DNA of 64,000 nt from a virus (IMGVR_UViG_3300032315_000486); one strand, 5' to 3'. Shown: positions 3,234 to 64,000, numbered from the stretch's first letter. Numbers and translations are program-made. Notes: a model not told the origin generated them from the letters alone.

Positions 3234-3280
3234 ACCATCTTTAAATAAATTTTTTGTTGCATCTGGCTCTCGAATCACGT
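3231..3280 (+). promoter_or_regulatory. sigma70-like promoter TTGCAT-N17-TAATGT with CGAATC spacer motif
   Basis: ttgttgcatctggctctcgaatcacgtaatgtatatac; same CGAATC-in-spacer architecture as promoters of the GC-rich cassette array at 59-63.5 kb. Confidence 0.45.
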
Positions 3281-3321
3281 AATGTATATACATACACAAA
3301 AACTTATGGGGTTTTAAAACA

Positions 3322-3642
3322 GTGTCAGAAACTCAACAAAACTACACAACTGAACAAACAAAGCAACTACTATCTCTCTATGAAGAGCTCGGAACAGACG
3401 GCATTGACGATATTGCAGAGCTTATGAAAAAGCCTGTAAGATCAATTAGATCTAAACTAGTTAAAGAGGGCGTATATGTACCCTCTCAAAAACAAGATAA
3501 CAAGAAAAATGGCCCTAGTAAGAAAGAACTTCTTAACACGCTAGAAAGCCTGGTAGGTTTTGACACTACTGGATTTAGTGGCTCAACCAAACAAGTATTG
3601 GCTGATTTAATTGTATATCTAGACAAAAATCACACTAAGTAA
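3322..3642 (+). CDS. small conserved protein, paralog family A (AT-rich copy)
   Basis: 106 aa, GTG start; shares NYT.E..QML.MYAELG.DGI..IAE.LGKPVRS.RSKLV.EGVYV...KKELLN.LESLVGFD with ORFs 60647-60973(-) and 63661->64000(-). Confidence 0.55.
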   Translation: MSETQQNYTTEQTKQLLSLYEELGTDGIDDIAELMKKPVRSIRSKLVKEGVYVPSQKQDNKKNGPSKKELLNTLESLVGFDTTGFSGSTKQVLADLIVYLDKNHTK

Positions 3643-14582: not shown

Positions 14583-14658
14583 GGTTCTATAGCACTACGG
14601 TAGTGCAGCCGTGCCCTAACACGGTCGGAAGCAGGTTCAATTCCTGTTAGGACCACCA
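14583..14658 (+). tRNA. tRNA with non-canonical anticodon arm (8-nt or 6-nt loop; candidate anticodon CCT or CTA)
   Basis: acceptor ggttcta/taggacc, D gcac-tacggta-gtgc, T-arm gcaggttcaattcctgt, CCA; anticodon region gccgtgccctaacacggt folds only as 5-bp stem + 8-nt loop or 6-bp stem + 6-nt loop. Confidence 0.55.
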
Positions 14659-53952: not shown

Positions 53953-53970
53953 TGGGCCCTTTTTTATTTA
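53936..53970. terminator. bidirectional rho-independent terminator
   Basis: aaaaa-gggccc-gtaat-gggccc-ttttttattt between convergent gene sets. Confidence 0.8.
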
Positions 53971-54974
53971 GCTGGTATGAGTATGCGAGAGAACTGTTCA
54001 TAACACGATTTCCATGTCCAACGCGTAGAACTATCATAAGCATCCTGCCTGCTCAGTTTCATTGCTTCAACCACAGCTTCATGTAGATCATCACTTAAGT
54101 ACCCATTAACTCCTTGAGTTAATATGTCTATAGGCCCAGTAACAGGATATGCAGCTACAGGAGTTCCACAAGCCAGCGCCTCAATGTTTACAACTCCAAA
54201 TGTATCAGATCGAGAAGGAAATACGAACACTGATGCTCGTCTATACCAGTCACCAAGCTCGTGCCCTGTTCGCTTTCCAGCAAAAAGAACATCTGGATAC
54301 CGAGCCTTCAAAGCCTCCAGATATGGTCCATCACCTACTAGCACCTTTTGAGTGCCTGGAATGTCAAGACTGCAAAAGTCGTCCAGACCTTTTTCATGGC
54401 TCACACGGCTCACGCACAACACAATCTTAGTAGACCCAGCCTCTCCCGTGTATGGATAGAACGTGGCAGTATCAACTCCGCGTGTCCATGAGTGAACTGG
54501 CTGAGTGAATCCGTGACCGCGCAGCTCTCGAACCATTGATTCAGTTGTGGTTAAAACCGCAGTAGCATCACGATAAGCCCAACGCATCAGCCGCCAACCC
54601 CGCTCAACACTGATCCAAGGCCAACGAGCATTGACAAACTCAGGAAATTTGGTATGGCATGATGCTGAGAACGGGATGCGCAGTCTGCGACAAGTTCTAG
54701 CAAATGCAATTCCAAGTGGGCCTTCTAGAGTTGCAATGTGAATGTGATCCCAGCGTTGACGCTTGAGCAGTCTACGAATGTGCAGAGGATTTGGGATTCC
54801 TACCGTAACCTCAGGATACTGAGGAAGCGAGAACCGGACAGTACAGCGTCCAGGATGATAAACGTGTACCACATCTCCATGGTTTCTAGCTTCACGAACG
54901 AGGTTCGTTAGGGTTGTGACCACTCCATTAGTTTGCGGATGCCAAGCATCAGTTATCAGAAGTATTCGTGCCAT
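53964..54974 (-). CDS. glycosyltransferase family 4 (GT-B fold)
   Basis: MARILLITDAWHPQTNGV N-terminus; EX7E motif region FVFPSRSDTFGVVNIEALACGTPVAAYPV. Confidence 0.7.
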   Translation of the reverse strand: MARILLITDAWHPQTNGVVTTLTNLVREARNHGDVVHVYHPGRCTVRFSLPQYPEVTVGIPNPLHIRRLLKRQRWDHIHIATLEGPLGIAFARTCRRLRIPFSASCHTKFPEFVNARWPWISVERGWRLMRWAYRDATAVLTTTESMVRELRGHGFTQPVHSWTRGVDTATFYPYTGEAGSTKIVLCVSRVSHEKGLDDFCSLDIPGTQKVLVGDGPYLEALKARYPDVLFAGKRTGHELGDWYRRASVFVFPSRSDTFGVVNIEALACGTPVAAYPVTGPIDILTQGVNGYLSDDLHEAVVEAMKLSRQDAYDSSTRWTWKSCYEQFSRILIPAK

Positions 54975-55707
54975 CTAACCTAAACTCTATGATTTCAAAC
55001 CGACCGTCTGAGTGTTCTACAAGGGCAGTTGCGCTTTCAACCCAATCACCGCAATTCATGTATGCAACCCCATCAATCTGCTTGATCACAGCTGTGTGAA
55101 TGTGTCCGCAGATGATCCCGTCATAGCCTTCACGTTTGCAATATGCAGAAACGTGAGTTTCAAAGTGTGTGATGAATGATACAGCTTGTTTTGTAGTCTG
55201 TTTGAGCCAGTTGCTCAAACTCCAGTATTCTAGACCAAACCAACCTCTCACTCGGTTAAATTGAATGTTCGCGACGATGGCCGCGTTGTATGCCACATCA
55301 CCGATGTGCATCAGCCAACGTTTGTCAACCATCAGCGAGTCAAAGAAGTCTCCATGAATCACCAGCAGCCGCTGTCCGCTCACAGAGTGATAGTCACAAC
55401 GATCTACCAGACGGATGTTGCCAACTTCAATGTCGAATTGAGTGAACTTGCGAAACACCTCATCGTGGTTTCCGGTCGTGTATGTGACCTCAGTTCCTCT
55501 TTTCGCTGCGGTAAGGATACGACGTATCACATTCGCATGGCTTTGAGGAAACCACCACCGACGGCTAAGTTGCCAGCCGTCGACAATGTCTCCAACCAGA
55601 AACAGTCGATCGCATGTGTGCTGCTTTAGAAACGCACACAGCGCGTCTGCTTGACAACCGCGAGCTCCTAGGTGAATGTCCGATATGAAAATGCTGGTGT
55701 AATGCAT
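54949..55707 (-). CDS. LpxH-like calcineurin-type metallophosphoesterase
   Basis: FISDIHLG, LVGDIVDGW, TGNHDE; overall layout as UDP-2,3-diacylglucosamine hydrolase family. Confidence 0.65.
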   Translation of the reverse strand: MHYTSIFISDIHLGARGCQADALCAFLKQHTCDRLFLVGDIVDGWQLSRRWWFPQSHANVIRRILTAAKRGTEVTYTTGNHDEVFRKFTQFDIEVGNIRLVDRCDYHSVSGQRLLVIHGDFFDSLMVDKRWLMHIGDVAYNAAIVANIQFNRVRGWFGLEYWSLSNWLKQTTKQAVSFITHFETHVSAYCKREGYDGIICGHIHTAVIKQIDGVAYMNCGDWVESATALVEHSDGRFEIIEFRLDGTNTSDN

Positions 55708-56510
55708 TATGCGCTAAACACGACCCCAACATAATTTGCAGAGGCCTGGGAGGCTCCACCCCAGAAATATGTGGTGACCGGTTCACTAGCTTGGAACGCT
55801 GAGATACCATATCCACCAGTGGTAAGAGCAGGTCCTGGAGTGTCGCCGTCAAGACGAGCTCCCGGCTGGATTCCCCAAACTCCGTCATCACGAGAGAAGA
55901 ATGAGGTTGTATGATAACCGTTGGCAGTAGGATCTTGAGCCGATGAAAACTGAAATCCACTAGTTTCATTGCTGCCATCTAGGATGATGTCTCCAGTGTT
56001 AGATATGATGATCGGACGATATTGACGGAACAGTCCATCACCAGTTTGAGGTGAGAACATGGTGGCTGGTGTGGTAACAGGTCGAGCAGAAGGAACGACA
56101 GTTCCCCCAGAGTCTATCGTAGCGCCTGTCCAAGCCCAAACTAGGATCCCACGGAATTGAGTTCCATCCCAGAATGCCATAGCGCTCCAAGGTAATCCGC
56201 TAGCAGCAGCCGTCCCAGTTAGAGTTCCCAGATCACGAACCCCGAGAGGACCGCTAGCACGGTAACGGAAGTTACCTGCGCCAGGAATGGTCTGAACTCC
56301 TGTCATTGACTCACTCATGAGTGTGGGGACGGGAACTGCCCACGCTGAATATCCACGTAGCTCTACAGCTGTGACAGCCGCAGCCACGGCAGTGGCGTTG
56401 GCAGTGACCGAGGAGAGCGTTCTAGCCAGCGAACGTAGTTCGCCCAAAACTGTCCCACCTCCTCCAGGCACCCAAGAGTTAACTCCGAAGGTGTCGAAAG
56501 GTGATATCAT
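55707..56510 (-). CDS. Gly/Thr/Ala-rich protein (possible fibre/surface protein)
   Basis: 267 aa, low complexity. Confidence 0.45.
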   Translation of the reverse strand: MISPFDTFGVNSWVPGGGGTVLGELRSLARTLSSVTANATAVAAAVTAVELRGYSAWAVPVPTLMSESMTGVQTIPGAGNFRYRASGPLGVRDLGTLTGTAAASGLPWSAMAFWDGTQFRGILVWAWTGATIDSGGTVVPSARPVTTPATMFSPQTGDGLFRQYRPIIISNTGDIILDGSNETSGFQFSSAQDPTANGYHTTSFFSRDDGVWGIQPGARLDGDTPGPALTTGGYGISAFQASEPVTTYFWGGASQASANYVGVVFSA

Positions 56511-56749
56511 CCTAGAGTAACCTCACTTGGGAAGCTGGAACGAACCCAAACCACATTTCCACTAGCAGTTGGGAATATGTCAGTTAAAGCTCCGCGGTCT
56601 CCTTGGTTAGCCTCATAGACAAATCCGGCCGCAGGTGATACGTTAGTTCCTAGTCCTACGAAAACTGCACCCGATCCAGTGATCTGAAAAGCTACAGTTG
56701 AGTTGGCTGAGGCTACACGCCAGTCAGCATTTGTTGTAATTGTATACAT
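56507..56749 (-). CDS. small Gly/Ala/Val-rich beta-type protein
   Basis: 80 aa, aaaggagaaaatcgaATG RBS; first gene of minus operon. Confidence 0.45.
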   Translation of the reverse strand: MYTITTNADWRVASANSTVAFQITGSGAVFVGLGTNVSPAAGFVYEANQGDRGALTDIFPTASGNVVWVRSSFPSEVTLG

Positions 56750-56769
56750 TCGATTTTCTCCTTTGATTT

Positions 56770-56798
56770 AGAATACCACGGTCACCAGCTGAGGTCAA
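56770..56798 (-). promoter_or_regulatory. sigma70-like promoter of minus operon (TTGACC-N17-TATTCT)
   Basis: reverse complement of ggtcaa(56793-98)/agaata(56770-75). Confidence 0.5.
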
Positions 56799-56820
56799 GC
56801 ATAATCGTCTAAAAAGTGCA

Positions 56821-56833
56821 GCAACGGAGTTGC
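56821..56833. promoter_or_regulatory. operator-like palindrome GCAAC-gga-GTTGC (site O1)
   Basis: just upstream of the -35 of the minus-operon promoter; same family as O2-O5. Confidence 0.4.
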
Positions 56834-57247
56834 GCTGGGGGCAGGGCATTAAAGAATATTTTTAAAATGGTCGTCAACCATTGTTTTTGACAACTTTGCT
56901 ACTAGACTTTTTATTCATTTAGGTGTACGATTGAGAGGTAGACAAAAGAGCAGGGAGAACGAGATAGGCAATGGAATTGCCGTGCGTACTAAGATCACGC
57001 AGTGAAACGGCGGGGCCAGCAGCAGGCTACGAGCGTTAGCGAGCGCTGCTGACAGCATCACGAAGTGAATTAGTGGTGATCGAAGCGGATATTTGAGTCG
57101 TACTTACGTTTAAATCACTGTGTTAGATTGTTTAAACGTATTTTAACCTGTTTACGTCGTATTCTAGTTTATAGTATTATTATTCAGGCACATTCAGGCC
57201 TGCCAAGAATTGGCACAGGCGGCAAGTGATACTATCCCAGCCTGCGT

Positions 57248-57262
57248 TGCAACGTAGTTGCA
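57248..57262. promoter_or_regulatory. operator-like palindrome TGCAAC-gta-GTTGCA (O2)
   Basis: perfect 6-bp inverted repeat. Confidence 0.45.
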
Positions 57263-57306
57263 TTGGGTTGTACTGGCCTGCCATGAAATGGCTCGGGGTT
57301 GATTCC

Positions 57307-57332
57307 GTTGCATTGGTTGCAACGAAGTTGCA
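57307..57332. promoter_or_regulatory. overlapping palindromes CGTTGCA-ttggt-TGCAACG and TGCAAC-gaa-GTTGCA (O3)
   Basis: two dyads sharing the TGCAAC arm. Confidence 0.45.
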
Positions 57333-57368
57333 CTGGTGGTCCATGAAATGGCTCGGGGCCCTTACATC

Positions 57369-57385
57369 GTGCAAAGTATTTGCAC
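57369..57385. promoter_or_regulatory. operator-like palindrome GTGCAAA-gta-TTTGCAC (O4)
   Basis: perfect 7-bp inverted repeat. Confidence 0.45.
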
Positions 57386-57694
57386 TGGTGGGCCATGAAA
57401 TGGCTCGGGGTTTTTAGGTTTTCCTACTAGGATTCCGTCTATTTTTTAGACTCTCTTCGGATCCAGGACTCTGTCTAGTGATTATTTTTCAAATAAGAGA
57501 GATTTTAGTCTAGTAACGTATACTATCGGTAGCCGACCGCGCCAGAAATTCATAAAAACAGGTTGGTACCAGTGGTCTTGCCAAATAATCATTTAAAAAG
57601 TAGGATTCCTCAAAAATATTTCAAAAAACAACCGTTAATTGCTTGACCCCTGCCCGTCAGACCCGTGAAACTACGTTTCATACCGAATATGGCG

Positions 57695-57709
57695 TTGCAC
57701 GAAGTGCAA
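57695..57709. promoter_or_regulatory. operator-like palindrome TTGCAC-gaa-GTGCAA (O5)
   Basis: perfect 6-bp inverted repeat adjacent to terminator. Confidence 0.45.
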
Positions 57710-57745
57710 AAGGCCCCTAGGAGTGATCCTAGGGGCCTTTTTAGT
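57707..57745. terminator. bidirectional rho-independent terminator
   Basis: aaaa-ggcccctagga-gtga-tcctaggggcc-ttttt, 11-bp perfect stem. Confidence 0.75.
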
Positions 57746-57826
57746 ATGATTCGGTAGCCTGTGGCGTACCCAGGACCTTGTTTCAATCATTCACTAGTCA
57801 AAATCCTACCACACGCATCAAAATTC

Positions 57827-58158
57827 TACTTGCCGTTTGCCTACTGGTGCTTCGCACCCACCCACATCACGAAGTGATGCACCGTTGCAGGACTTTGAAA
57901 CGTAGTTTCGAATCGCACGAACCCCGCCACGCGCTTTGATTTTGTACTTGCCATTTGCCTACTGGTGCACGCACACACTTGCAATTAAACAGCAGCTGGA
58001 CCGAATCCCGCGTTTAAAATTTACTTTGTACTTGCCAAATGCCTACTGGCGCAGGGCCGCGCACACAGACTGACCGTCAACACGGACCTAATCGAAATTG
58101 CACTCGACGGCCGCATGGTCGAAAGTCTACTTTCTACTTGGCGCAAGCTGCGCTTGCC
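57827..58158 (+). repeat. iteron-like direct repeats TACTTGCCnTTTGCCTACTGGyGC (3 good copies + 1 degenerate)
   Basis: copies at 57827-57850, 57945-57968, 58029-58052, degenerate 58134-58158; spacing 118/84/105 bp. Confidence 0.55.
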
Positions 58159-58212
58159 AGCTATGCCTGCGGTTGCGGCGAAATCGCGTGGTGGTTGTGG
58201 TGGAAAAGATGA

Positions 58213-58270
58213 ATGAAATCAATTGCTTGGGAGGCCGGGCGCCCCGACTGTTAACCTGTTGAAATCCAAT
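58213..58270. repeat. cassette-boundary dyad element R1 (degenerate)
   Basis: aatcaattgcttgg...ggccgggcgccccg...ctgttaacctgttgaaatcc. Confidence 0.4.
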
Positions 58271-58509
58271 GGTTATTTTTCATTTGCATCAGTGCTGAGA
58301 ATCATGTATAACGTATGAGTAGGCAGTAAAGAGAAGCCTAGCCGATGCCGCGATAGACTGCACCGCTTACACTGTTCATGACAGGCGGCTTGCACGGATG
58401 ATACGGGTTGGTCAGATGAAGCGGGGTAGAGATGCGCATCCCCTGCCAATCGAATAGGCTTCTCCTTAGTGCCTACCAATAAACTCTTTGATTTCAGTAA
58501 CTTGGAATC

Positions 58510-58555
58510 AGAGGCGCCCCGCCCTGTATGTCCTTGAACATACAGGGTTTTTTAG
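58510..58555 (+). terminator. rho-independent terminator oriented for plus-strand transcription (R0)
   Basis: ggcgccccg then ccctgtatgt-ccttga-acatacaggg hairpin + tttttt. Confidence 0.7.
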
Positions 58556-58773
58556 TGCGCCTCGAATTGTGGGACTAAAGCCCATTCAACATTAGACAGC
58601 TCAGTCAACTCGCCATCTTCAATGCCGAGCATTTTCCAATTGCTGTAAGCGTCCCAGTCCTTTTTATCAATGGCCCCGCCTTCCCAGAGTTTACGGAATT
58701 CAGCATTGATTTGCGGAAGTGTGCCTTGTATAAAACAAGGCACTTCATCCTCCGTATAGATCAGCACATACAT
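58552..58773 (-). CDS. hypothetical acidic protein (73 aa)
   Basis: last gene of a tricistronic minus unit. Confidence 0.45.
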   Translation of the reverse strand: MYVLIYTEDEVPCFIQGTLPQINAEFRKLWEGGAIDKKDWDAYSNWKMLGIEDGELTELSNVEWALVPQFEAH

Positions 58774-58784
58774 TTTATTTCCTT

Positions 58785-59015
58785 TCAGAAAACAGATTGA
58801 GGATGGCCGAACAACACAACCAGAAGGTCATAGCCGTCGAGCAGATCAGCCAGAGCGGCAACGCGGTCAACCTCGTCCCATTCAGCGTATTCGACTTCGC
58901 CAGCGAGTGACACCCAAGCGGCACTGGTCATGAGATTGGGATCAACATCGGTTTCAACTTCGGTGAGCATATAATGGTCACCGCCATCACGCCAGACTAC
59001 AGTGTAGTTTTTCAT
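58785..59015 (-). CDS. hypothetical acidic protein (76 aa)
   Basis: ORF. Confidence 0.45.
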   Translation of the reverse strand: MKNYTVVWRDGGDHYMLTEVETDVDPNLMTSAAWVSLAGEVEYAEWDEVDRVAALADLLDGYDLLVVLFGHPQSVF

Positions 59016-59026
59016 GTCTTTTCCTT

Positions 59027-59149
59027 TCAGAGGATTGTGAGTGATTCGACAGTGGATTCATCTTCTGCCAAATGGTAACCAAAGTCAAGCAGAATTTGCA
59101 TAGTCAAATGATTCAGGTAGTCGATGTATTCTTCGTAGGTCAGGTCCAT
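59027..59149 (-). CDS. hypothetical small protein (40 aa)
   Basis: ATG 8 nt after ggaaaaacaaa RBS-like and correctly spaced from promoter Pm1. Confidence 0.3.
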   Translation of the reverse strand: MDLTYEEYIDYLNHLTMQILLDFGYHLAEDESTVESLTIL

Positions 59150-59172
59150 TTTGTTTTTCCTTTCGATGATTA

Positions 59173-59201
59173 TGTATAGGCTGATTCGTTACGCGTTGCA
59201 A
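59173..59201 (-). promoter_or_regulatory. cassette promoter Pm1 (TTGCAA-N17-TATACA, CGAATC in spacer)
   Basis: minus strand ttgcaacgcgtaacgaatcagcctataca. Confidence 0.55.
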
Positions 59202-59221
59202 GCCCTAAATTACTGCGTAAT

Positions 59222-59270
59222 ATCAATGAGTTACGACCCGGGGCGCCGGGGTGGTTAACCCCTTGTTATT
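59222..59270. repeat. cassette-boundary dyad element R2
   Basis: caatgagttacgacccggggcgccggggtggttaaccccttgttatt. Confidence 0.6.
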
Positions 59271-59466
59271 ATTCAGTTTCTTCCTCTGGGATGTCTTCAA
59301 CCTCGATTAGTTTCGCATCTAAATTATGCGAATCAAAGGTTTGCTCTTCCGAATCTTCCCAATCACCATTGCGGACCATAGCCCTAGCCTCTTCTTCTGA
59401 TTCGGCTTCAAGCCAGACTGTTTGCCGCCCGCTGAACGGCATTGAAAAGGTGTAAAGTTTGCTCAT
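59269..59466 (-). CDS. hypothetical acidic protein (65 aa)
   Basis: start MSKLYTF after gggagatcaaagc RBS; track ORF opens at 59505. Confidence 0.45.
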   Translation of the reverse strand: MSKLYTFSMPFSGRQTVWLEAESEEEARAMVRNGDWEDSEEQTFDSHNLDAKLIEVEDIPEEETE

Positions 59467-59546
59467 GCTTTGATCTCCCTGATCAGTTGTTTCAGGCGCG
59501 CCCAACGGCTACGCTTGGGCTTGCTCAGTCGAACTTTAATCCTCAT
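59463..59546 (-). CDS. 27-aa basic peptide (MRIKVRLSKPKRSRWARLKQLIREIKA), translationally coupled on both sides
   Basis: TAAAATG overlap with upstream stop and ATGA overlap with downstream start. Confidence 0.25.
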   Translation of the reverse strand: MRIKVRLSKPKRSRWARLKQLIREIKA

Positions 59547-59547
59547 T

Positions 59548-59775
59548 TTAGCAGCTCCCGATTTCAAGAATGTCAGAGTTAAATTGCGGTTGCAGAGTAT
59601 TTACCACATCTTCCCAAGTGGTAAATGATCCTCCAGCAGGATCACCATCACACCAAACACTATCATCAGATTCATCATCGCAGACAACGCTGAAATTAGA
59701 ATCCTCTTCCAAAGTGCCATAGCACTCCACGTCCCGACCTTGGTAGTGGACGATGTATACATGATTTGCTTCCAT
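59548..59775 (-). CDS. hypothetical Cys/Asp-rich protein (75 aa)
   Basis: aaaaggagaaacaaagATG RBS. Confidence 0.5.
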   Translation of the reverse strand: MEANHVYIVHYQGRDVECYGTLEEDSNFSVVCDDESDDSVWCDGDPAGGSFTTWEDVVNTLQPQFNSDILEIGSC

Positions 59776-59799
59776 CTTTGTTTCTCCTTTTGATGATTA

Positions 59800-59829
59800 A
59801 CTATAGCCCGAATCATGAGGACAGTGCAA
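59800..59829 (-). promoter_or_regulatory. cassette promoter Pm2 (TTGCAC-N18-TATAGT, GATTCG in spacer)
   Basis: minus strand ttgcactgtcctcatgattcgggctatagt. Confidence 0.5.
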
Positions 59830-59848
59830 GCACAAAGTTTCTGTGTGT

Positions 59849-59900
59849 TCTCAACGGGTTATGCTGCGGGGCGCCGGGGTGGTTAACCCCTTGTTATTAT
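59849..59900. repeat. cassette-boundary dyad element R3
   Basis: caacgggttatgctgcggggcgccggggtggttaaccccttgttatt. Confidence 0.55.
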
Positions 59901-60319
59901 AATTCTTCAACAGGTAGATATTCCCATTTAAAAGACCTAGAACCAGAAATTTCTAGCAGAGGAGATTCTGTCTTTTTATTGTATTTCAGAAAAGACTTGA
60001 CCTCCTTGAGCACGTGTTTGGCTTGTAGGAAAGTAATTGCAAAAACCTCAGTTTGCCCGCTATTCATTTTAAACCCTTGGCCGGTCTTAGGGTCTTGAAA
60101 GTTACCTGATACAACCACCTCGTATGCTTTGCCGCCTTTCTTTTCTGCAAGCATATGTGCAAGCACTTCAGCATCGGAATCTTCAATCTCAATGCTAGCC
60201 ATGCGAATGCGATCAGACTTTAGAAACCCGATTTGTTTTGCTCGGGACGTAACACTTCCGCGAGTTACACCGATTTTGGTAATTCCAAAACCTTCGTAAG
60301 TGACAGCATAGAGTTTCAT
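59897..60319 (-). CDS. GIY-YIG/T5orf172-like domain protein candidate (140 aa)
   Basis: start MKLYAVTYEGFGITKIGVT (..LY....G..KIGvT); promoter-consistent ATG at 60319 rather than 60373. Confidence 0.4.
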   Translation of the reverse strand: MKLYAVTYEGFGITKIGVTRGSVTSRAKQIGFLKSDRIRMASIEIEDSDAEVLAHMLAEKKGGKAYEVVVSGNFQDPKTGQGFKMNSGQTEVFAITFLQAKHVLKEVKSFLKYNKKTESPLLEISGSRSFKWEYLPVEEL

Positions 60320-60344
60320 GGTTGCTTCCTTTTCTGTTACCTTG

Positions 60345-60373
60345 TTTATAGCTGCTAAACTATAAGTCGTCAA
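60345..60373 (-). promoter_or_regulatory. cassette promoter Pm3 (TTGACG-N17-TATAAA)
   Basis: minus strand ttgacgacttatagtttagcagctataaa. Confidence 0.5.
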
Positions 60374-60393
60374 TATCGTTTAAAGACGATAGA

Positions 60394-60446
60394 AATCAAT
60401 GAGTTAGCTGCCCGGCCGCCCCACCCGCTAACCTGTTGAAATCATT
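60394..60446. repeat. cassette-boundary dyad element R4
   Basis: aatcaatgagttagctgcccggccgccccacccgctaacctgttgaaatcatt. Confidence 0.6.
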
Positions 60447-60471
60447 ACACATTTTCCGTGTCTTTCGTGCA

Positions 60472-60504
60472 ACAAAAAAGCCCCCGCATTGCTGCGAGGG
60501 CTTT
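60472..60504 (-). terminator. rho-independent terminator (minus orientation)
   Basis: minus strand gccctcgcagcaatgcgggggc + ttttttgtt. Confidence 0.55.
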
Positions 60505-60646
60505 AAGCGTGCATACTGTCTAGCACGATCAACCGGCGGGTGACGCAACCGACACGGATTTGTTTTGACCATTTAACGTCGGGTCTGGAGTCTTATCTGA
60601 ACCGAGACGATAGTTGGGTGTGACATTTCTGCCACACCCGTTAGGC

Positions 60647-60973
60647 TCAGGCGGCTTTCACCGCCTGCGCCAGAGCGATCACAGAGGCGATTGCCTCTTT
60701 AGTCGCACCCAGCAAACCGTCAACGGGAAAATCGACCAGCGACTCCAGTTCGTTGAGCAGTTCCTTTTTGGTCGGGCCTTCGACCTTGGCAGCCTTCGGA
60801 GCCTTCGGCTCGGCCACATAGGCACCCTCGCGGACCAGCTTGGACCGGACGGACCGGACAGGCTTGCCCAAGGTTTCGGCAATCTTTTCGATGCCGTCAT
60901 TGCCCAACTCGGCATACATCTGCAACATTTGCTCGACCATCGACTCGGTGTAGTTCACTTTTGCTTCAGCCAT
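60647..60973 (-). CDS. small conserved protein, paralog family A (GC-rich copy 1)
   Basis: MAEAKVNYTESMVEQMLQMYAELGNDGIEKIAETLGKPVRSVRSKLVREGAYV...KKELLNELESLVDF; start chosen from ggagaaaatcATG. Confidence 0.55.
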   Translation of the reverse strand: MAEAKVNYTESMVEQMLQMYAELGNDGIEKIAETLGKPVRSVRSKLVREGAYVAEPKAPKAAKVEGPTKKELLNELESLVDFPVDGLLGATKEAIASVIALAQAVKAA

Positions 60974-61004
60974 GATTTTCTCCTCAGATGGGCTGTTTCG
61001 CTTT

Positions 61005-61033
61005 CCGTTCAATATATATAGACGATTCGCGGG
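61005..61033 (-). promoter_or_regulatory. cassette promoter Pm4 (TTGCTG-N17-TATATA, CGAATC in spacer)
   Basis: minus strand ttgctgcctgcccgcgaatcgtctatata. Confidence 0.5.
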
Positions 61034-61103
61034 CAGGCAGCAAGAGTAATTTTTCGCTTGACACGCACAAAATGGGGTCTTGAAGTGACTAAATTATGCA
61101 ATG

Positions 61104-61162
61104 AAATCAATGGGTTAGCCGCCGGGGCGCCGCCCCAGCTATCTCATTGAAATAGCTGGGTT
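61104..61162. repeat. cassette-boundary dyad element R5
   Basis: aatcaatgggttagccgccggggcgccgccccagctatctcattgaaatagctgggtttttt. Confidence 0.6.
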
Positions 61163-61167
61163 TTTTG

Positions 61168-61371
61168 TTACAGTTCGTCAACGAGAGTTTCGTCGTCACC
61201 CTCCCAAGCGGCGTTCATCAGACACGAGTCTGCGCCTTCTTCTGGAGTCATGCCGCACTCATAGGAGTCACGGCTAAGCCAGTCGGGCAGCATCATACTG
61301 TCAAGCCCGCCAGTCCGCTTGACGAGAATGCGATCAACCTGCGTCATCCATTCTTCATAGGTTATAGTCAT
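61168..61371 (-). CDS. hypothetical acidic protein (67 aa)
   Basis: ggagg RBS; ATGA overlap with upstream gene. Confidence 0.45.
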   Translation of the reverse strand: MTITYEEWMTQVDRILVKRTGGLDSMMLPDWLSRDSYECGMTPEEGADSCLMNAAWEGDDETLVDEL

Positions 61372-61559
61372 TCAAAGTGTCCTCCAAATCGAGTGTGGCC
61401 GATAGCTACAGGAATTTCGTGCGTGGGATATCCATCAGCTTTGAGTTGTGAAGCCAGGGTTTCATCAGAACGAGTCAAGCCTTTCGGCCATGTTTTGGGA
61501 AATCCATACCGCCAGCCGCTTGGCGGGTCATACCAGTCAGGGACGAAAACTTTAGTCAT
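61368..61559 (-). CDS. hypothetical protein (63 aa)
   Basis: start MTKVFVPDWYD after caggaggttgct RBS; track ORF opens at 61634. Confidence 0.45.
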   Translation of the reverse strand: MTKVFVPDWYDPPSGWRYGFPKTWPKGLTRSDETLASQLKADGYPTHEIPVAIGHTRFGGHFE

Positions 61560-61580
61560 AGCAACCTCCTGTGATGATCG

Positions 61581-61609
61581 TATATAACGTGATTCGTTAG
61601 TGCGGACAA
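61581..61609 (-). promoter_or_regulatory. cassette promoter Pm5 (TTGTCC-N17-TATATA, CGAATC in spacer)
   Basis: minus strand ttgtccgcactaacgaatcacgttatata. Confidence 0.5.
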
Positions 61610-61628
61610 TAGGCAAATTTGTGTGCGT

Positions 61629-61680
61629 TATCAATGAGTTAGAATCGGCAGCGCCCCGCCCGCTAAGTGCTTGATTTAGT
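61629..61680. repeat. cassette-boundary dyad element R6
   Basis: atcaatgagttagaatcggcagcgccccgcccgctaagtgcttgatttag. Confidence 0.55.
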
Positions 61681-61710
61681 TGAGAAAAATGAGGGGCCGA
61701 AGCCCCTCAC

Positions 61711-62433
61711 TTAGGCGTTGACAACCTGCGGCAACTGTGCCTTGCCGTCGATGCCGAGTCGGGTGTTGATTTTCTTCCACACCGCGCCAGCCAGTTCGGC
61801 AGGGGACTTGACAACAGGCATTCGTTTCTTGCGCGACAGCGTCCGCACCAGCAAATCCGATTCGATTTCCACGTCGGACCAAGCGATATGCCGCTCTACA
61901 AATTCCGCTTGACAAAATTCGTATTTGTAAGCGGACTCGGCAGAGGTCGAAACGAATCGGCCAGACGCGCTGGCAGCGGCGACCGTGCCATAATGACGCG
62001 GCACCGATTCGCCCCAGAAATCCCAAATGTCCATCAGTTCCACGCGCTTGTCAAGCCACCGCGTAACCGTGCCGCCCGTCAAGACAGAGACGGTTTCAGG
62101 CAAGTATTTGAAATCAAAGGCAGAATTGTAGGCCGCGCAGATCACTCGATGGCCTGCCACCTGAAATTCGCCAATTTGGCGGTTATACTCCGCGCGAACG
62201 TCCAGCACATCCGCAGGCTGAATCAGCTTGCCATATGCGTCGTCAAAGTAGTGGCCCAGCTTTTCAGCGAAGAAAGGCACATCATGGCGGAACGCCTCGC
62301 GAATCACATACGACCCGCGACCATATTCGCGGCCACGCTTGTCAATGGTTTTCCATGCCACATCAAACGCGATGCGTTTTTTCATGGTGGTTTCAATGTC
62401 AGTCACGACGAACAGGGTGGGCTTATGGGTCAT
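61711..62433 (-). CDS. DEDDh 3'-5' exonuclease (DnaQ-like fold)
   Basis: Exo I LFVVTDIETT (D.E), Exo II ICAAYNSAFDFKYL, Exo III HIAWSDVEIESDL (H....D); start at 62433 consistent with promoter/RBS. Confidence 0.6.
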   Translation of the reverse strand: MTHKPTLFVVTDIETTMKKRIAFDVAWKTIDKRGREYGRGSYVIREAFRHDVPFFAEKLGHYFDDAYGKLIQPADVLDVRAEYNRQIGEFQVAGHRVICAAYNSAFDFKYLPETVSVLTGGTVTRWLDKRVELMDIWDFWGESVPRHYGTVAAASASGRFVSTSAESAYKYEFCQAEFVERHIAWSDVEIESDLLVRTLSRKKRMPVVKSPAELAGAVWKKINTRLGIDGKAQLPQVVNA

Positions 62434-62470
62434 GGCAGGTTTCCTTCGTTGTCTGCGCTTCCTTATGATC

Positions 62471-62499
62471 TTTATACGGTGATTCGCAGGGGGATGCAA
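62471..62499 (-). promoter_or_regulatory. cassette promoter Pm6 (TTGCAT-N17-TATAAA, CGAATC in spacer)
   Basis: minus strand ttgcatccccctgcgaatcaccgtataaa. Confidence 0.5.
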
Positions 62500-62517
62500 C
62501 AACTAAAAAACGCAGCA

Positions 62518-62580
62518 AAATCAAGGGGTTAGCGGCGGGGGCGCCGGGGTGGTTAACCCCTTGTTATTCAATGATTTCTG
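62518..62580. repeat. cassette-boundary dyad element R7
   Basis: aatcaaggggttagcggcgggggcgccggggtggttaaccccttgttattcaatgatttc. Confidence 0.6.
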
Positions 62581-62749
62581 TCCACACCGAAATCTTCTGG
62601 CAAGCCTCATCATATAAGCTATTGTTCACGCCTTCGATATAGAGGTCGATAGCACCCGCCCCTTGGGCAATTACTTCCTCAGGAATTTCCTCGATCCATT
62701 CTGTATCAGTTCCGGCATATCCCATGCTATAACCCATTTTAATCTTCAT
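62564..62749 (-). CDS. hypothetical acidic protein (61 aa)
   Basis: last gene of tricistronic unit. Confidence 0.4.
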   Translation of the reverse strand: MKIKMGYSMGYAGTDTEWIEEIPEEVIAQGAGAIDLYIEGVNNSLYDEACQKISVWTEIIE

Positions 62750-63039
62750 TAGTATTCTCCACTCGGCAAGATGTTTTGATATACAGGACCATTTTCCGCG
62801 ATTTTAATATCCTCATACGGGCCGACGATAACGCGGTTCAGTTCCATTTTAGCGCATTCCAGAGCGCCAACCATTTCATTGACCACGGCGTATTTCAGCC
62901 CTTTAGTGCGGATATAATTGGCGATGAATGTGGAAACCACGAAGTTCAATTCACCCGCATTTTCAGGAATCCAATCAATTCCAACATCTTGCATATCAAG
63001 ATGAATATCTTCGCGCTGTTGTTCGGGGATATACGGCAT
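62749..63039 (-). CDS. hypothetical protein (96 aa)
   Basis: ORF coupled to upstream NDT-like gene. Confidence 0.45.
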   Translation of the reverse strand: MPYIPEQQREDIHLDMQDVGIDWIPENAGELNFVVSTFIANYIRTKGLKYAVVNEMVGALECAKMELNRVIVGPYEDIKIAENGPVYQNILPSGEY

Positions 63040-63040
63040 T

Positions 63041-63487
63041 TTAAGCGACCTTTCTCAGGGTTTCAACATTGCGACCACGGCGGCCAATTTCGGAGGCAAT
63101 GGCGTGATACGCGCCTTTCACCAGATTGTCAGTATCAAGCCAAGTCCAGAGGTGGTGATGCGTAAATGCCACATCCGAAATTGCATTCGGCTTGATAGAG
63201 CGGCAGCTACCGACAGCATACACCGGCTTGCCCATACCGTAGGCCATACCGATTTCAACCAGAGCGCCGCGCTGTTCTTCCGATTGATCCTCAGAGTAGA
63301 GCAGCACGAAGTCCGAGTCGCGCACATCTTCGTAGCACATTTGCCACAGTTGGTCTTTGTGATTGGTGACAATCGGATCATTCTGGTTCAAGTCGATCCA
63401 GCGAGCCTGAACAGGCAGACCCAGCGTGTCACGCAACATTTTGAATTTGTCAGCGTGCCAGATTTTGCCAGCGGTGTAGAATTTCAT
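63041..63487 (-). CDS. nucleoside 2-deoxyribosyltransferase-like (NDT/Rcl fold) protein, GC-rich copy
   Basis: MKFYTAGKIW....SDFVLLYSEDQSEEQRGALVEIGMAYGMGKPVYAV matches NDT-like pattern; aaaaggaacctgccATG RBS. Confidence 0.5.
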   Translation of the reverse strand: MKFYTAGKIWHADKFKMLRDTLGLPVQARWIDLNQNDPIVTNHKDQLWQMCYEDVRDSDFVLLYSEDQSEEQRGALVEIGMAYGMGKPVYAVGSCRSIKPNAISDVAFTHHHLWTWLDTDNLVKGAYHAIASEIGRRGRNVETLRKVA

Positions 63488-63519
63488 GGCAGGTTCCTTT
63501 TCTCTCTTGCCGATGATTA

Positions 63520-63548
63520 TGTATAGGCCGATTCGTTGGGCATTACAA
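63520..63548 (-). promoter_or_regulatory. cassette promoter Pm7 (TTGTAA-N17-TATACA, CGAATC in spacer)
   Basis: minus strand ttgtaatgcccaacgaatcggcctataca. Confidence 0.55.
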
Positions 63549-63565
63549 CAGAAAAGAATCGTTGT

Positions 63566-63620
63566 GAATCAATGGGTTAGCCGCGGGGGCGCCCCGCCCC
63601 GTAAGTTGTTGAAATCATTC
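63566..63620. repeat. cassette-boundary dyad element R8
   Basis: aatcaatgggttagccgcgggggcgccccgccccgtaagttgttgaaatcattc. Confidence 0.6.
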
Positions 63621-63660
63621 AGAAAAATGTGGGGGAACCTGTGCGGTTCCCCCTTGACGG

Positions 63661-64000
63661 TCAGGCCGATTCGGTTTCATCCTCATCGGCGGGCGCTTCG
63701 TCCTGCGACTCAGCCAGCGCGATAACGTGCGCGATGGCTTCCTTCGTGGCACCCATCAGTCCCGACACGTCGAAGCCAACCAGCGACTCGAGCTGATTCA
63801 GAAGTTCCTTCTTCGTCGGACCTTCTTCCTTCTTCGCCTTGGGCTTTTCAGCCGCGGCGACGTAAACGCCTTCGCGCACCAGCTTCGAGCGGACCGAACG
63901 GACGGGCTTGCCGAGAGTCTCAGCAATCGTATCCAGACCTTCGTTGCCGAGGTCCGCATACATTTGGAGCATGGTTTCCACCATAGCTTCCGTGTAGTTC
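63661..64000 (-). CDS. small conserved protein, paralog family A (GC-rich copy 2), 5' end beyond window
   Basis: ...NYTEAMVETMLQMYADLGNEGLDTIAETLGKPVRSVRSKLVREGVYV...KKELLNQLESLVGFD; alignment with 60647 copy shows N-terminus continues past 64000. Confidence 0.5.
   Translation of the reverse strand, partial: NYTEAMVETMLQMYADLGNEGLDTIAETLGKPVRSVRSKLVREGVYVAAAEKPKAKKEEGPTKKELLNQLESLVGFDVSGLMGATKEAIAHVIALAESQDEAPADEDETESA

Follow-up and report, generated by a model that had tools for sequence, protein, structure and literature searches.

A probable T5-like pre-early gene array of shuffled promoter cassettes with a putative double IHF-type boundary site in an uncultured phage

The distal end of a 64,000-nucleotide stretch of viral DNA (IMGVR_UViG_3300032315_000486; the whole stretch is referred to below as the window) carries a dense array of small genes, in which the units are separated from one another by a conserved dyad element followed by a predicted promoter. 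On balance, we favour the explanation that this is a T5-like pre-early array of shuffled cassettes with a double IHF-type boundary site. The block itself very probably belongs to the pre-early gene array of a T5-like phage, of which it makes up the promoter-distal 5.5 kb, and we infer that the array would correspond to a first-step-transfer region with two-step DNA entry, holding the first-expressed genes. Inside the window it comprises 14 complete open reading frames (ORFs) and one cut ORF, all on the minus strand from 58.5 kb to the window end, in seven units with a promoter inside the window and one unit cut by its end. An earlier, sequence-only reading had counted about 16 small minus-strand genes in about seven units, and the packing that it described stands with these slightly different counts. 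A public contig of 5,055 bp, L002, encodes the same nucleoside 2-deoxyribosyltransferase (NDT)-like protein as gene g11 of the array; it overlaps the window end by 1,462 bp with 0 mismatches and adds 3,593 bp of array with the same architecture. The array, which had been described from 58.5 kb to the window end, therefore continues for at least 3.6 kb past it and totals at least 9 kb. Window and L002 together give 15 co-oriented units in the focal phage, and one module is common to the 15 focal intergenic regions: (in three cases) a terminator, then the dyad, about 21 nt of A/T-rich sequence, the promoter, an AGGAG leader and the ATG (Table 1).

The dyad has a fixed geometry, A-tract-N9-ATCAA-N4-TTR-N8-GGCGCC-N8-YAA-N4-TTGAT-N9-T-tract, over 76 bp, and it precedes nearly all of the promoters. 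The seven dyads recognized earlier between 59.2 and 63.6 kb are all present, and two more lie at 58490-58541 and 58216-58266; the length of about 55 bp given for them fell short, and their centre is GGCGCC. GGGGCGCC occurs eight times in the window, always inside 58,238-63,595, against 0.58 expected by chance. A profile built from 16 focal copies (window and L002), which align without gaps, found nine sites in the window, all inside 58,214-63,618, and 0 sites in the other 58 kb, so that within the window the dyad is restricted to the array. The same profile detected 298 sites in about 40 related IMG/VR contigs, of which 260 were free of insertions and deletions, and had no match in the terminal repeat (LTR) of T5. 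The exact palindromic consensus pattern had 0 matches in 185,579 bacterial and archaeal genomes (596 Gb) and was found in only about 15 IMG/VR contigs, 11 of them already among the related contigs. Column frequencies were taken from 203 unique extended copies from the related contigs (187-203 per column). From left to right they give an A-tract at -10 to -5, then 9 nt, ATCAA at 5-9, N4, TTR at 14-16 and eight variable GC-rich positions, followed by GGCGCC at 25-30, YAA at 39-41, TTGAT at 46-50 and a T-tract at 60-65, with the -35 hexamer at column 71. The right half is the exact mirror of the left, and the left part of the core is rich in G, the right part in C.

The conserved blocks coincide with a known protein site. 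The canonical IHF site is WATCAAnnnnTTR with an A-tract in its 5' half (PMC1874591), and the column frequencies of the 187-203 copies agree with each specified position of this consensus, WATCAANNNNTTR, in both halves of the dyad; at column 16, the R of TTR, A was found 176 times, G 11 times and a pyrimidine 0 times. The A-tract and the mirrored T-tract each lie 9 nt from ATCAA, as the 5'-half A-tract element requires (PMC1874591). The window contains 13 exact WATCAANNNNTTR matches where 3.6 would be expected; nine of the 13 fall in the array, at 58.2-63.6 kb. In the lambda H' site, the gap between A-tract and ATCAA is likewise 9 nt. Each dyad would thus present two inverted IHF-type sites, 22 bp apart around the palindromic GGCGCC, with the promoter-proximal A/T tract abutting the -35 hexamer. 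A search with E. coli query sequences detected neither an IHF nor an HU gene in the phage DNA examined, and the candidate binder is therefore the host protein.

Whether the symmetry reflects pairing was examined in the variable positions. At the 14 variable symmetric positions, complementarity equalled the shuffle expectation, every z lying within +/-2. In an 88-sequence gap-free alignment, 66.3% of cells were paired against 66.9 +/- 0.7 after shuffling, with a covariation score of 0.125 against 0.130, and a mutual-information scan inside the dyad found no covarying column pair. Because the spacer pairs at chance level, the pairing potential of the dyad comes entirely from its conserved symmetric blocks. 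For lack of covariation, a selected RNA or DNA hairpin was rejected as an account of the dyad, which is not simply a stem-loop. Since covariation is lacking and the conserved blocks are those of two canonical IHF sites, the dyad is probably a protein-binding site rather than a hairpin. For IHF as the protein in question we would put the chances at about even. From the sequence, the reading that suits the boundary element best is a double IHF-type protein site placed a fixed distance away from the promoter.

The dyads could also act at the RNA level and keep transcription units apart, either as a long imperfect bidirectional intrinsic terminator or attenuator, or as a hairpin that is stabilising or serves RNase III. 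They lie directly after stop codons and before the next promoter, an A-tract and a T-tract flank them symmetrically, and 66% of the symmetric positions are able to pair. Sense RNA across the dyad averages -19.6 kcal/mol (z=-2.7), stabler than shuffled sequence, and the fold ends beside the T-tract in 82 of 203 copies, compatible with a terminator role; the polyG/polyC stem-loops of the T4-type PeSL cassettes terminate transcription (PMC2839356). Genuine local hairpins are present in subsets of the copies: several left halves form a good hairpin beside the A-tract, so that the antisense strand reads as a stem with a U-run behind it, and they were picked up by the terminator scan. These hairpins sit in different registers and the alignment-wide signal is weak, and a single conserved local hairpin in the left half was accordingly rejected as a weak, subset-only signal. 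Against an RNA-level role, the pairing is no more than shuffled sequence provides and shows no compensatory change, and a length fixed to the base pair in the 260 indel-free copies is not something terminators need. The best-conserved blocks, ATCAA and TTR, are AT-rich, as are the mostly unpaired 10 nt beside the T-tract, and the U-tract has no GC stem next to it. Taken as a whole, the dyad thus lacks the compensated GC stem and immediate U-tract of a Rho-independent terminator; such features are found in the subset of left halves (antisense) and in three separate elements upstream of dyads, which are canonical intrinsic terminators belonging to three units. In addition, the dyad at 58216-58266 has no gene upstream and serves a plus-strand promoter, which argues for a role at the DNA level. 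We regard the RNA-level account as unlikely, and a terminator or attenuator role may be retained as a rival or as a secondary function of the protein site that we prefer.

All 15 focal units have a predicted sigma-70-type promoter of the form TTGnnn-N17/18-TAnnnW with a T-tract at -46 to -41; the typical shape is a TTGCAn -35, a 17-nt spacer and a TAnnnW -10 mostly ending in A. The dyad stands 20-22 nt from the -35 in 87 of 185 cases, with a second mode at about 63-64 nt. It had been claimed that each unit carries TTGnnn-N17-TATAnA with CGAATC 3-4 nt upstream of the -10. A predicted promoter is indeed present everywhere, and the spacer motif is less regular than supposed, since among the seven in-window promoters CGAATC is so placed in five, GATTCG replaces it in one and the one upstream of 59897-60319 has neither. 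In 12 of the 15 focal promoters the spacer contains GANTC, read either as CGAATCR or in the inverse form. GANTC is unevenly distributed, with 143 observed against 200 expected in window positions 1-53900 and 65 observed against 35 expected in the array, an excess that is due in part to the promoter copies. All 12 GANTC-bearing promoters fit the GcrA-type pattern YGAKTCK, and seven have the top consensus TGATTCG. TGATTCG is the GcrA consensus of the methylated promoters that depend on GcrA/CcrM in Alphaproteobacteria (Haakonsen et al. 2015, PMC4647560), and the focal spacer CGAATCA is its reverse complement. The focal motif differs in being lineage-specific, and a GcrA/CcrM setting would be a speculative candidate here. 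The rhizobial promoter consensus is CTTGAC-N17-CTATAT, which the focal cTTGCAn-N17-cTATAnA resembles, and both rhizobial hexamers turned up in papers on S. meliloti promoters in a full-text search. The promoter motif may, speculatively, hint at an alphaproteobacterial host.

Comparison with relatives revealed that the units behave as movable pieces. When 24 focal proteins were searched by tblastn against 27 related loci, the same genes were recovered in permuted order and always in the same orientation, with two to three copies of A2-like genes and one to two of dmp. Nucleotide homology blocks often stop within +/-3 nt of the dyad centre. Where two dyads share only the upstream gene, the left half is 0.67 identical versus 0.56 for the right (p=1e-4), and where they have no more than the downstream gene in common, identity is 0.54 on the left versus 0.61 on the right (p=7e-3), the baseline between unrelated pairs being 0.53. 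The halves therefore segregate with their neighbours and each dyad is a hybrid of the two, which accounts for the lack of left-right covariation. In the related locus L040, an unrelated ORF replaces g18 between conserved modules, with homology lost at the start codon on one side and at the next dyad on the other. Taken together, these results imply, with good confidence, that the units are shuffled promoter cassettes with the dyad-promoter module as their boundary. The likeness to PeSL-type modular cassettes that had been suggested holds for the permuted order, the boundaries at dyads and the segregation of halves; it does not extend to homology, nor is the phage T4-like.

Such segregation would also be expected of site-specific recombination sites of an att or integron-like kind, with GGCGCC as crossover core, IHF arms as in lambda attP and a dedicated recombinase or nuclease that moves the cassettes. 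The layout of an IHF site, a core and a second IHF site does recall attP. The ending of many homology blocks at the centre would fit this explanation, and a 23-nt core is identical in otherwise diverged contigs. In this partial genome, however, no integrase or recombinase domain was detected in the array proteins scanned, nor in 34 of the 38 ORFs that have 150 aa or more and lie in the window beyond the array. Some junctions, moreover, lie at a start codon or dyad edge, as general homologous recombination within a repeated 125-bp module predicts, and the fixed distance to the -35 favours a transcriptional role. We consider recombination sites of this kind improbable. The same low probability applies to a bolder form of the idea, in which the dyad would be a dedicated IHF-assembled exchange site. 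Two IHF U-turns would present GGCGCC to a phage factor, possibly the duplicated A2-like proteins, and the pre-early region would be an integron-like platform on which phages infecting one cell would exchange, at defined junctions, host-takeover or anti-defence genes that bring their own promoters, with this nucleoprotein complex also insulating units and activating promoters on freshly injected DNA. Our preferred reading of the dyad remains the double IHF-type site of a promoter module.

The assignment to a T5-like phage draws on the gene content and layout of the genome. NAD-dependent DNA ligase, NAMPT, NMNAT-Nudix, SPFH protein, endolysin, HNH endonuclease, dUTPase and metallophosphatases were called by domain in the window, and 27 tRNA genes lie within 4.3-21.7 kb. 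By tblastn, the ligase is matched best in T5-like phages that infect Enterobacter and Vibrio, at only about 32% identity. Near and distant nucleotide searches of the array block against 50,697 phage records gave 0 matches, as did tblastn of the A2-like protein, and the 240-aa g14 protein matched only at about 27% identity in Enterococcus phages. These nucleotide and protein searches yielded no cultured relative and no clue to the host, and a search of bacterial genomes with the g14 protein had no match. Because of its ligase, tRNA and gene content together with the absence of a match among the phage records, the virus is, judged from its sequence, an uncultured, distant T5-like phage. Within the array, the A2-like paralogue a, cut by the window end, aligns with T5 A2 (BLASTP, 36% identity over 74 aa, E=7e-8); it also has a weak precomputed Pfam match to PF26822 (Phage_T5_A2) and a match to phrog_1725, a DNA-binding protein family. 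The product of g05 (L002:1722-2201), located 1.4 kb past the window end on the identical contig, is a homologue of T5 dmp, a 5'-deoxyribonucleotidase (34% identity over 178 aa, E=2e-16; precomputed Pfam PF26880). The two paralogous small proteins noticed earlier are these A2 homologues, and the 27-aa basic ORF noticed with them is also present.

The layout points in the same direction. Genes are on the plus strand over 1-53,952 and on the minus strand from 53,964 to the window end, and behind the array come a 1.7-kb untranslated repeat region, three further genes and, on the opposite strand, the block rich in tRNA genes. T5 carries its pre-early genes in the left terminal repeat, and an untranslated stretch of repeats, the injection stop signal (iss), stands between them and the early genes (AY543070; doi 10.1101/866236); the repeat region here (56511-58213) takes the same place as the iss region. 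Related contigs break off within the array or close to it. The array of relative L019 stands directly downstream of tail genes, between these and other genes, as is expected if a terminal repeat collapsed in assembly. As a separate observation, the dyad repeats fragment short-read assemblies of this phage clade: the ends of L002 and L069 (Logan contigs of run ERR2848561, 5.0 kb and 2.7 kb) fall at repeated dyads, between g13 and g14.

The composition of the array sets it apart from the rest of the genome and had been taken to mean that the block is foreign to it. The contrast in GC is real, at 49.7% for 58501-64000 versus 42.9% for 1-53900, and had been overstated as 50-60% against about 40%; it is not uniform, ranging from 43.6 to 53.9% per kb with units g18-g19 at just 41-44%, and the rise starts near 53 kb. 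GC at third codon positions (GC3) is 0.575 in array genes versus 0.377 in plus-strand genes, and codons read by the phage's own U34 tRNAs are two to six times rarer in the array. Relative use within the amino acid, array versus rest, is 0.06/0.34 for CTA, 0.09/0.40 for GTA, 0.11/0.36 for CCA and 0.05/0.18 for AGA. The raised GC of the array reflects an avoidance of A-ending codons decoded by the phage's own 27 tRNAs. T5 (AY543070) has a weaker codon split in the same direction, with a GC3 of 0.395 in LTR genes versus 0.331 in early genes, and its LTR genes use GTA, GCA, CCA and AGA less, all of them served by T5 tRNAs. Plausibly, host-type codons are obligatory for genes that are expressed while the tRNA-bearing DNA is not yet available. 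An origin as a horizontally acquired, compositionally foreign accessory island would explain a GC above the rest of the window, the many ORFs without database match and the gain, loss and replacement of units among relatives. It is contradicted by the presence in the block of dmp and A2, which are consistently conserved T5 pre-early genes, by the presence of such an array in every related contig examined, and by a GC shift that is uneven between units and concentrated at third codon positions, in codons served by phage tRNAs. Thus the foreign origin is very unlikely and was rejected in favour of a resident pre-early array.

T5 virion DNA suggests a further role for the GGCGCC centres, as strand-specific nick sites. 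The T5 record gives the nick consensus 5'-NPu^GCGCN-3', which GGCGCC fits on both strands. The three mapped major T5 nick sites, however, have a longer motif, A^GCGCAGGG, absent from the dyad cores, and what is shared is just the 5-bp RGCGC, short and common in GC-rich DNA. T5 nicks are also few and on one strand, whereas more than 15 symmetric sites lie here within 9 kb, and better look-alikes are found past the window end as GCGCAGGC-N4-GCCTGCGC hairpins. The dyad core was rejected as a T5 nick site, an identity to which we would give hardly any weight. The hairpin motif ATA-GCGCAGGC-N4-GCCTGCGCC-GGTGGTAAAATTGTG is present in three copies on L002, at 139-175, 1060-1090 and 2873-2905 (window-equivalent about 67455, 66530 and 64721), and it resembles the context of the mapped major T5 nicks (A^GCGCAGGGCAATTGCCCTGC). 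These hairpins may be nick sites or another regulatory repeat.

A mechanism can be proposed from these observations. At least 15 co-oriented mini-operons would read toward the untranslated repeat region, each with its own promoter, at which the sigma-70-type RNA polymerase of the host would act without modification. Both halves of each dyad would be bound by host IHF or by another protein sharing its specificity, which would impose sharp bends on either side of a stiff GC core and so insulate neighbouring units and position the upstream DNA for the promoter. The GGCGCC core may bind a second factor, for which the A2-like proteins are speculative candidates, and the left-half hairpin that is often present beside the A-tract would stop antisense transcripts. 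Repeated at every unit, the module of about 125 bp could serve as a portable homology and boundary site; recombination at the modules would permute, replace and duplicate units among related phages, as PeSLs do in T4-type phages. The avoidance of phage-tRNA codons by the array genes would fit translation before the tRNA-bearing DNA is available.

Besides the stable sense RNA, the folds that end beside the T-tract and the local hairpins described above, several observations weigh against this reading. The IHF consensus that we used is that of E. coli and may not be that of the host, and IHF does not explain the conserved GGCGCC core. Some exchange junctions, as in L040, lie at ORF edges and not at the dyad centre. 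The spacer motif CGAATC is lineage-specific, other relatives carrying TGCGATAAA in its place, and it was ruled out as a universal feature of the module. A generic sigma-70 scan did not flag the unit promoters, because most have A and not T at the last -10 position. T5 A1 gave 0 tblastn matches in the window and 55 loci, a search that did not cover sequence beyond L002, and its pairwise comparisons were not significant. The repeat region at 56511-58213 has no DnaA box of the form TTWTNCACA, a consensus from which that of the host may differ.

The individual features are collected in Table 1. Of the proteins for which an enzymatic function had been suggested, g14 shows the DEDDh-exonuclease pattern (DxE / NxxFD / Hx4D) at residues D12/E14, N103/F106/D107 and H182/D187, which are invariant in 11 homologues. 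It has no match in Pfam or among PDB sequences, so the DEDDh call is one of motifs alone, and a single-sequence AlphaFold model was unusable (pLDDT 33.6). The NDT-like assignment of g11 is weak, falling under the curated cut-off of PF05014, and g11 has no match among PDB sequences. The T5orf172-like call at g18 is very weak, its similarity being not significant. Since the cargo includes dmp and A2 of the T5 pre-early set, a host-takeover character for it is plausible. On L002, a 56-aa protein (3257-3427) has a weak match to ribosome modulation factor (E=1e-3), and the C-terminal part of a 96-aa protein (333-623) matches the ribosomal protein L7/L12 C-terminal domain at 25.8 bits (cut-off 25.9); these two may be candidate pre-early proteins targeting host translation.

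Table 1 Features of the array and the adjoining region in window coordinates.
Feature	Position	Strand	Basis and remarks
Three genes between the repeat region and the plus-strand block	53964-56510	-	GT4 glycosyltransferase, calcineurin-like phosphoesterase, 267-aa protein without known function
Untranslated repeat region	56511-58213	.	three 41-nt and three 49-nt direct repeats, several palindromes; adjoins the array downstream; conserved in L040
Inverted module: dyad 58216-58266, 21 nt, predicted promoter TTGCAT-N17-TATAAC 58284-58312	58216-58312	+	same geometry as the modal 20-22 nt
Candidate structured non-coding RNA, about 230 nt, putatively driven by the inverted module	58318-58556	+	minimum free energy -94.2 kcal/mol, z=-5.4
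Degenerate dyad (58490-58541) fused to bidirectional terminator	58490-58548	.	A6-CCCTGTATGT...ACATACAGGG then T6 on + strand; closes the array
Unit g22 (40 aa), g23 (76 aa), g24 (73 aa)	58552-59149	-	ORF calls
Predicted promoter TTGCAA-N17-TATACA, spacer CGAATCA	59173-59201	-	sequence reading
Dyad, GGGGTTAACCACCCC subtype	59220-59271	.	profile
Unit g19 (75 aa), g20 (27-aa basic peptide, 59463-59546), g21 (65 aa)	59269-59775	-	coupled/overlapping starts
Predicted promoter TTGCAC-N18-TATAGT, spacer TGATTCG (inverted motif)	59800-59829	-	sequence reading
Dyad, GGGGTTAACCACCCC subtype	59848-59899	.	profile
g18, 140 aa, GC 41%	59897-60319	-	T5orf172 similarity not significant, Pfam E=0.075
Predicted promoter TTGACG-N17-TATAAA, spacer without GANTC	60345-60373	-	sequence reading
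Dyad	60392-60444	.	nhmmer 43.3 bits
Predicted intrinsic terminator after g17	60477-60504	-	terminator scan
g17, A2-like DNA-binding protein, paralogue b, 108 aa	60647-60973	-	phrog_1725 E=1.4e-6; paralogue of the 63661-64026 gene
Predicted promoter TTGCTG-N17-TATATA, spacer CGAATCG	61015-61043	-	about 64 nt from the dyad, second spacing mode
Dyad, left half extended to an 8-bp hairpin preceded by A6, predicted terminator for antisense transcripts	61104-61153	.	profile
g16, 67 aa, DUF5419-like	61168-61371	-	phrog_519
g15, 63 aa	61368-61559	-	ORF call
Predicted promoter TTGTCC-N17-TATATA, spacer CGAATCA	61581-61609	-	sequence reading
Dyad	61628-61678	.	nhmmer 44.5 bits; both arms exact WATCAANNNNTTR
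Predicted intrinsic terminator after g14	61684-61708	-	GAGGGGCTTCGGCCCCTC then T-run; sequence reading
g14, 240 aa, DEDDh-exonuclease motif pattern	61711-62433	-	phrog_20187; motifs invariant in homologues
Predicted promoter TTGCAT-N17-TATAAA, spacer CGAATCA	62471-62499	-	sequence reading
Dyad, AACAAGGGGTTAACCACCCCGGCGCCCC subtype	62518-62569	.	23-nt core exact in 4 other IMG/VR contigs
g13, 61 aa, acidic	62564-62749	-	no Pfam or PHROG match
g12, 96 aa, DUF6899	62749-63039	-	Pfam E=1.1e-21
g11, 148 aa, weakly nucleoside 2-deoxyribosyltransferase-like	63041-63487	-	PF05014 E=6.5e-6, 26.7 bits (cut-off 28.8 bits)
Predicted promoter TTGTAA-N17-TATACA, spacer CGAATCG	63520-63548	-	would drive g11-g12-g13
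Dyad TCAA-N4-TTAC...GGCGCC...CTAA-N4-TTGA	63567-63618	.	nhmmer 45.1 bits; promoter-proximal arm exact WATCAANNNNTTR
Predicted intrinsic terminator after A2-like a	63631-63653	-	GGGGGAACC-GCAC-AGGTTCCCCC then T-run; upstream of and separate from the dyad; terminator scan and reading
A2-like DNA-binding protein, paralogue a	63661-64000, full gene to window-equivalent 64026 (121 aa)	-	T5 A2 and phrog_1725 matches; cut by window end

At the inner edge of the array, the candidate non-coding RNA is conserved at the nucleotide level in L040 and L008 and would end at the bidirectional terminator. It has no Rfam match, and Rfam gave nothing meaningful over 56-64 kb. The three genes beyond the repeat region have a raised overall GC of 49.5% and a GC3 of 0.42, near that of the rest of the genome; the calcineurin-like phosphoesterase among them has only metallophosphatase motifs in common with T5 A1, and the similarity is not significant. 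Elsewhere in the window, ARAGORN reported a tRNA-like gene with an abnormal two-base anticodon (tRNA-???) at 14583-14658 on the plus strand, within the tRNA cluster.

If the reading proposed here is correct, PeSL-type promoter cassettes would not be peculiar to T4-like phages, and large virulent phages would repeatedly have used shuffled cassettes to hold their fast-evolving first-expressed genes, likely host-takeover or anti-defence genes, in a modular and exchangeable form. It would define a precise element, a double inverted IHF site around GGCGCC set at a constant spacing from the promoter, that ties a host architectural protein to the earliest gene expression and perhaps to exchange. It would likewise explain a compositional split within one phage genome by the use of host-type codons before phage tRNA genes are available, and it would make the pre-early cargo of a widespread uncultured T5-like clade (about 40 contigs) a catalogue of small candidate host-modulating proteins.

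Several known systems share parts of this architecture. As in canonical IHF sites such as lambda H' and those of attP, each dyad half holds all site elements in canonical order, and two sites bracket a short core; in contrast to these, the focal sites are exactly inverted, 22 bp apart and present more than 15 times per genome before promoters, with no recombinase arm sites evident. The BIME or RIP-RIB elements of E. coli are also repeated intergenic composites after genes that combine a GC-rich palindrome with IHF sequences. Their plan is the reverse, with one central IHF site flanked by two REP palindromes, whereas the focal element is a central GC core flanked by two IHF sites and, by the search of bacterial and archaeal genomes with its exact consensus pattern, is phage-specific. 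Integron attC arrays resemble the focal array in their small, co-oriented, mostly promoter-proximal ORFs and in imperfect inverted-repeat boundaries that are each a hybrid of the adjacent cassettes. They differ in that every focal unit has its own promoter, that no integrase was found in the scanned ORFs, and that the focal site is read as double-stranded symmetric blocks and not as a folded single strand with extrahelical bases. The attC consensus is RYYYAAC...GTTRRRY, from which TCAA-N4-TTAG...CTAA-N4-TTGA differs, and the dyad was rejected as an integron attC site on this ground and for want of an integrase in those ORFs.

With the T5 pre-early region, the focal array shares homologues of dmp and A2, many small genes without known function and several strong host-type promoters (predicted here), an untranslated repeat region that separates the block from early genes on the other strand, and a tRNA cluster in what would be the later-entering part of the genome. 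It differs in that no A1 homologue, DnaA boxes or LTR counterpart of the dyad were found. Moreover, its units are all co-oriented, whereas T5 has two divergent arms, and its A2 is duplicated or triplicated. The promoter-early stem-loop (PeSL) cassettes that T4-type phages carry (Arbiol et al. 2010, PMC2839356; Comeau et al. 2014, PMC4122927) lack sequence homology to the focal element, as judged from the PeSL description, and the focal genome is T5-like rather than T4-like. PeSLs lie in hyperplastic regions and the focal array in a pre-early region. The PeSL stem-loop varies in position relative to the promoter (five subclasses) and is a demonstrated terminator, whereas the focal dyad is fixed in length and position, has no covariation and holds two IHF-consensus sites. 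Both are nevertheless composites of about 100-125 bp made up of a sigma-70-type early promoter, an AT-rich upstream stretch and a G-run/C-run dyad. Both are repeated between small ORFs of unknown function, directly after the stop codon of the upstream gene, and both mark the breakpoints of insertion, deletion, replacement and reordering between related phages.

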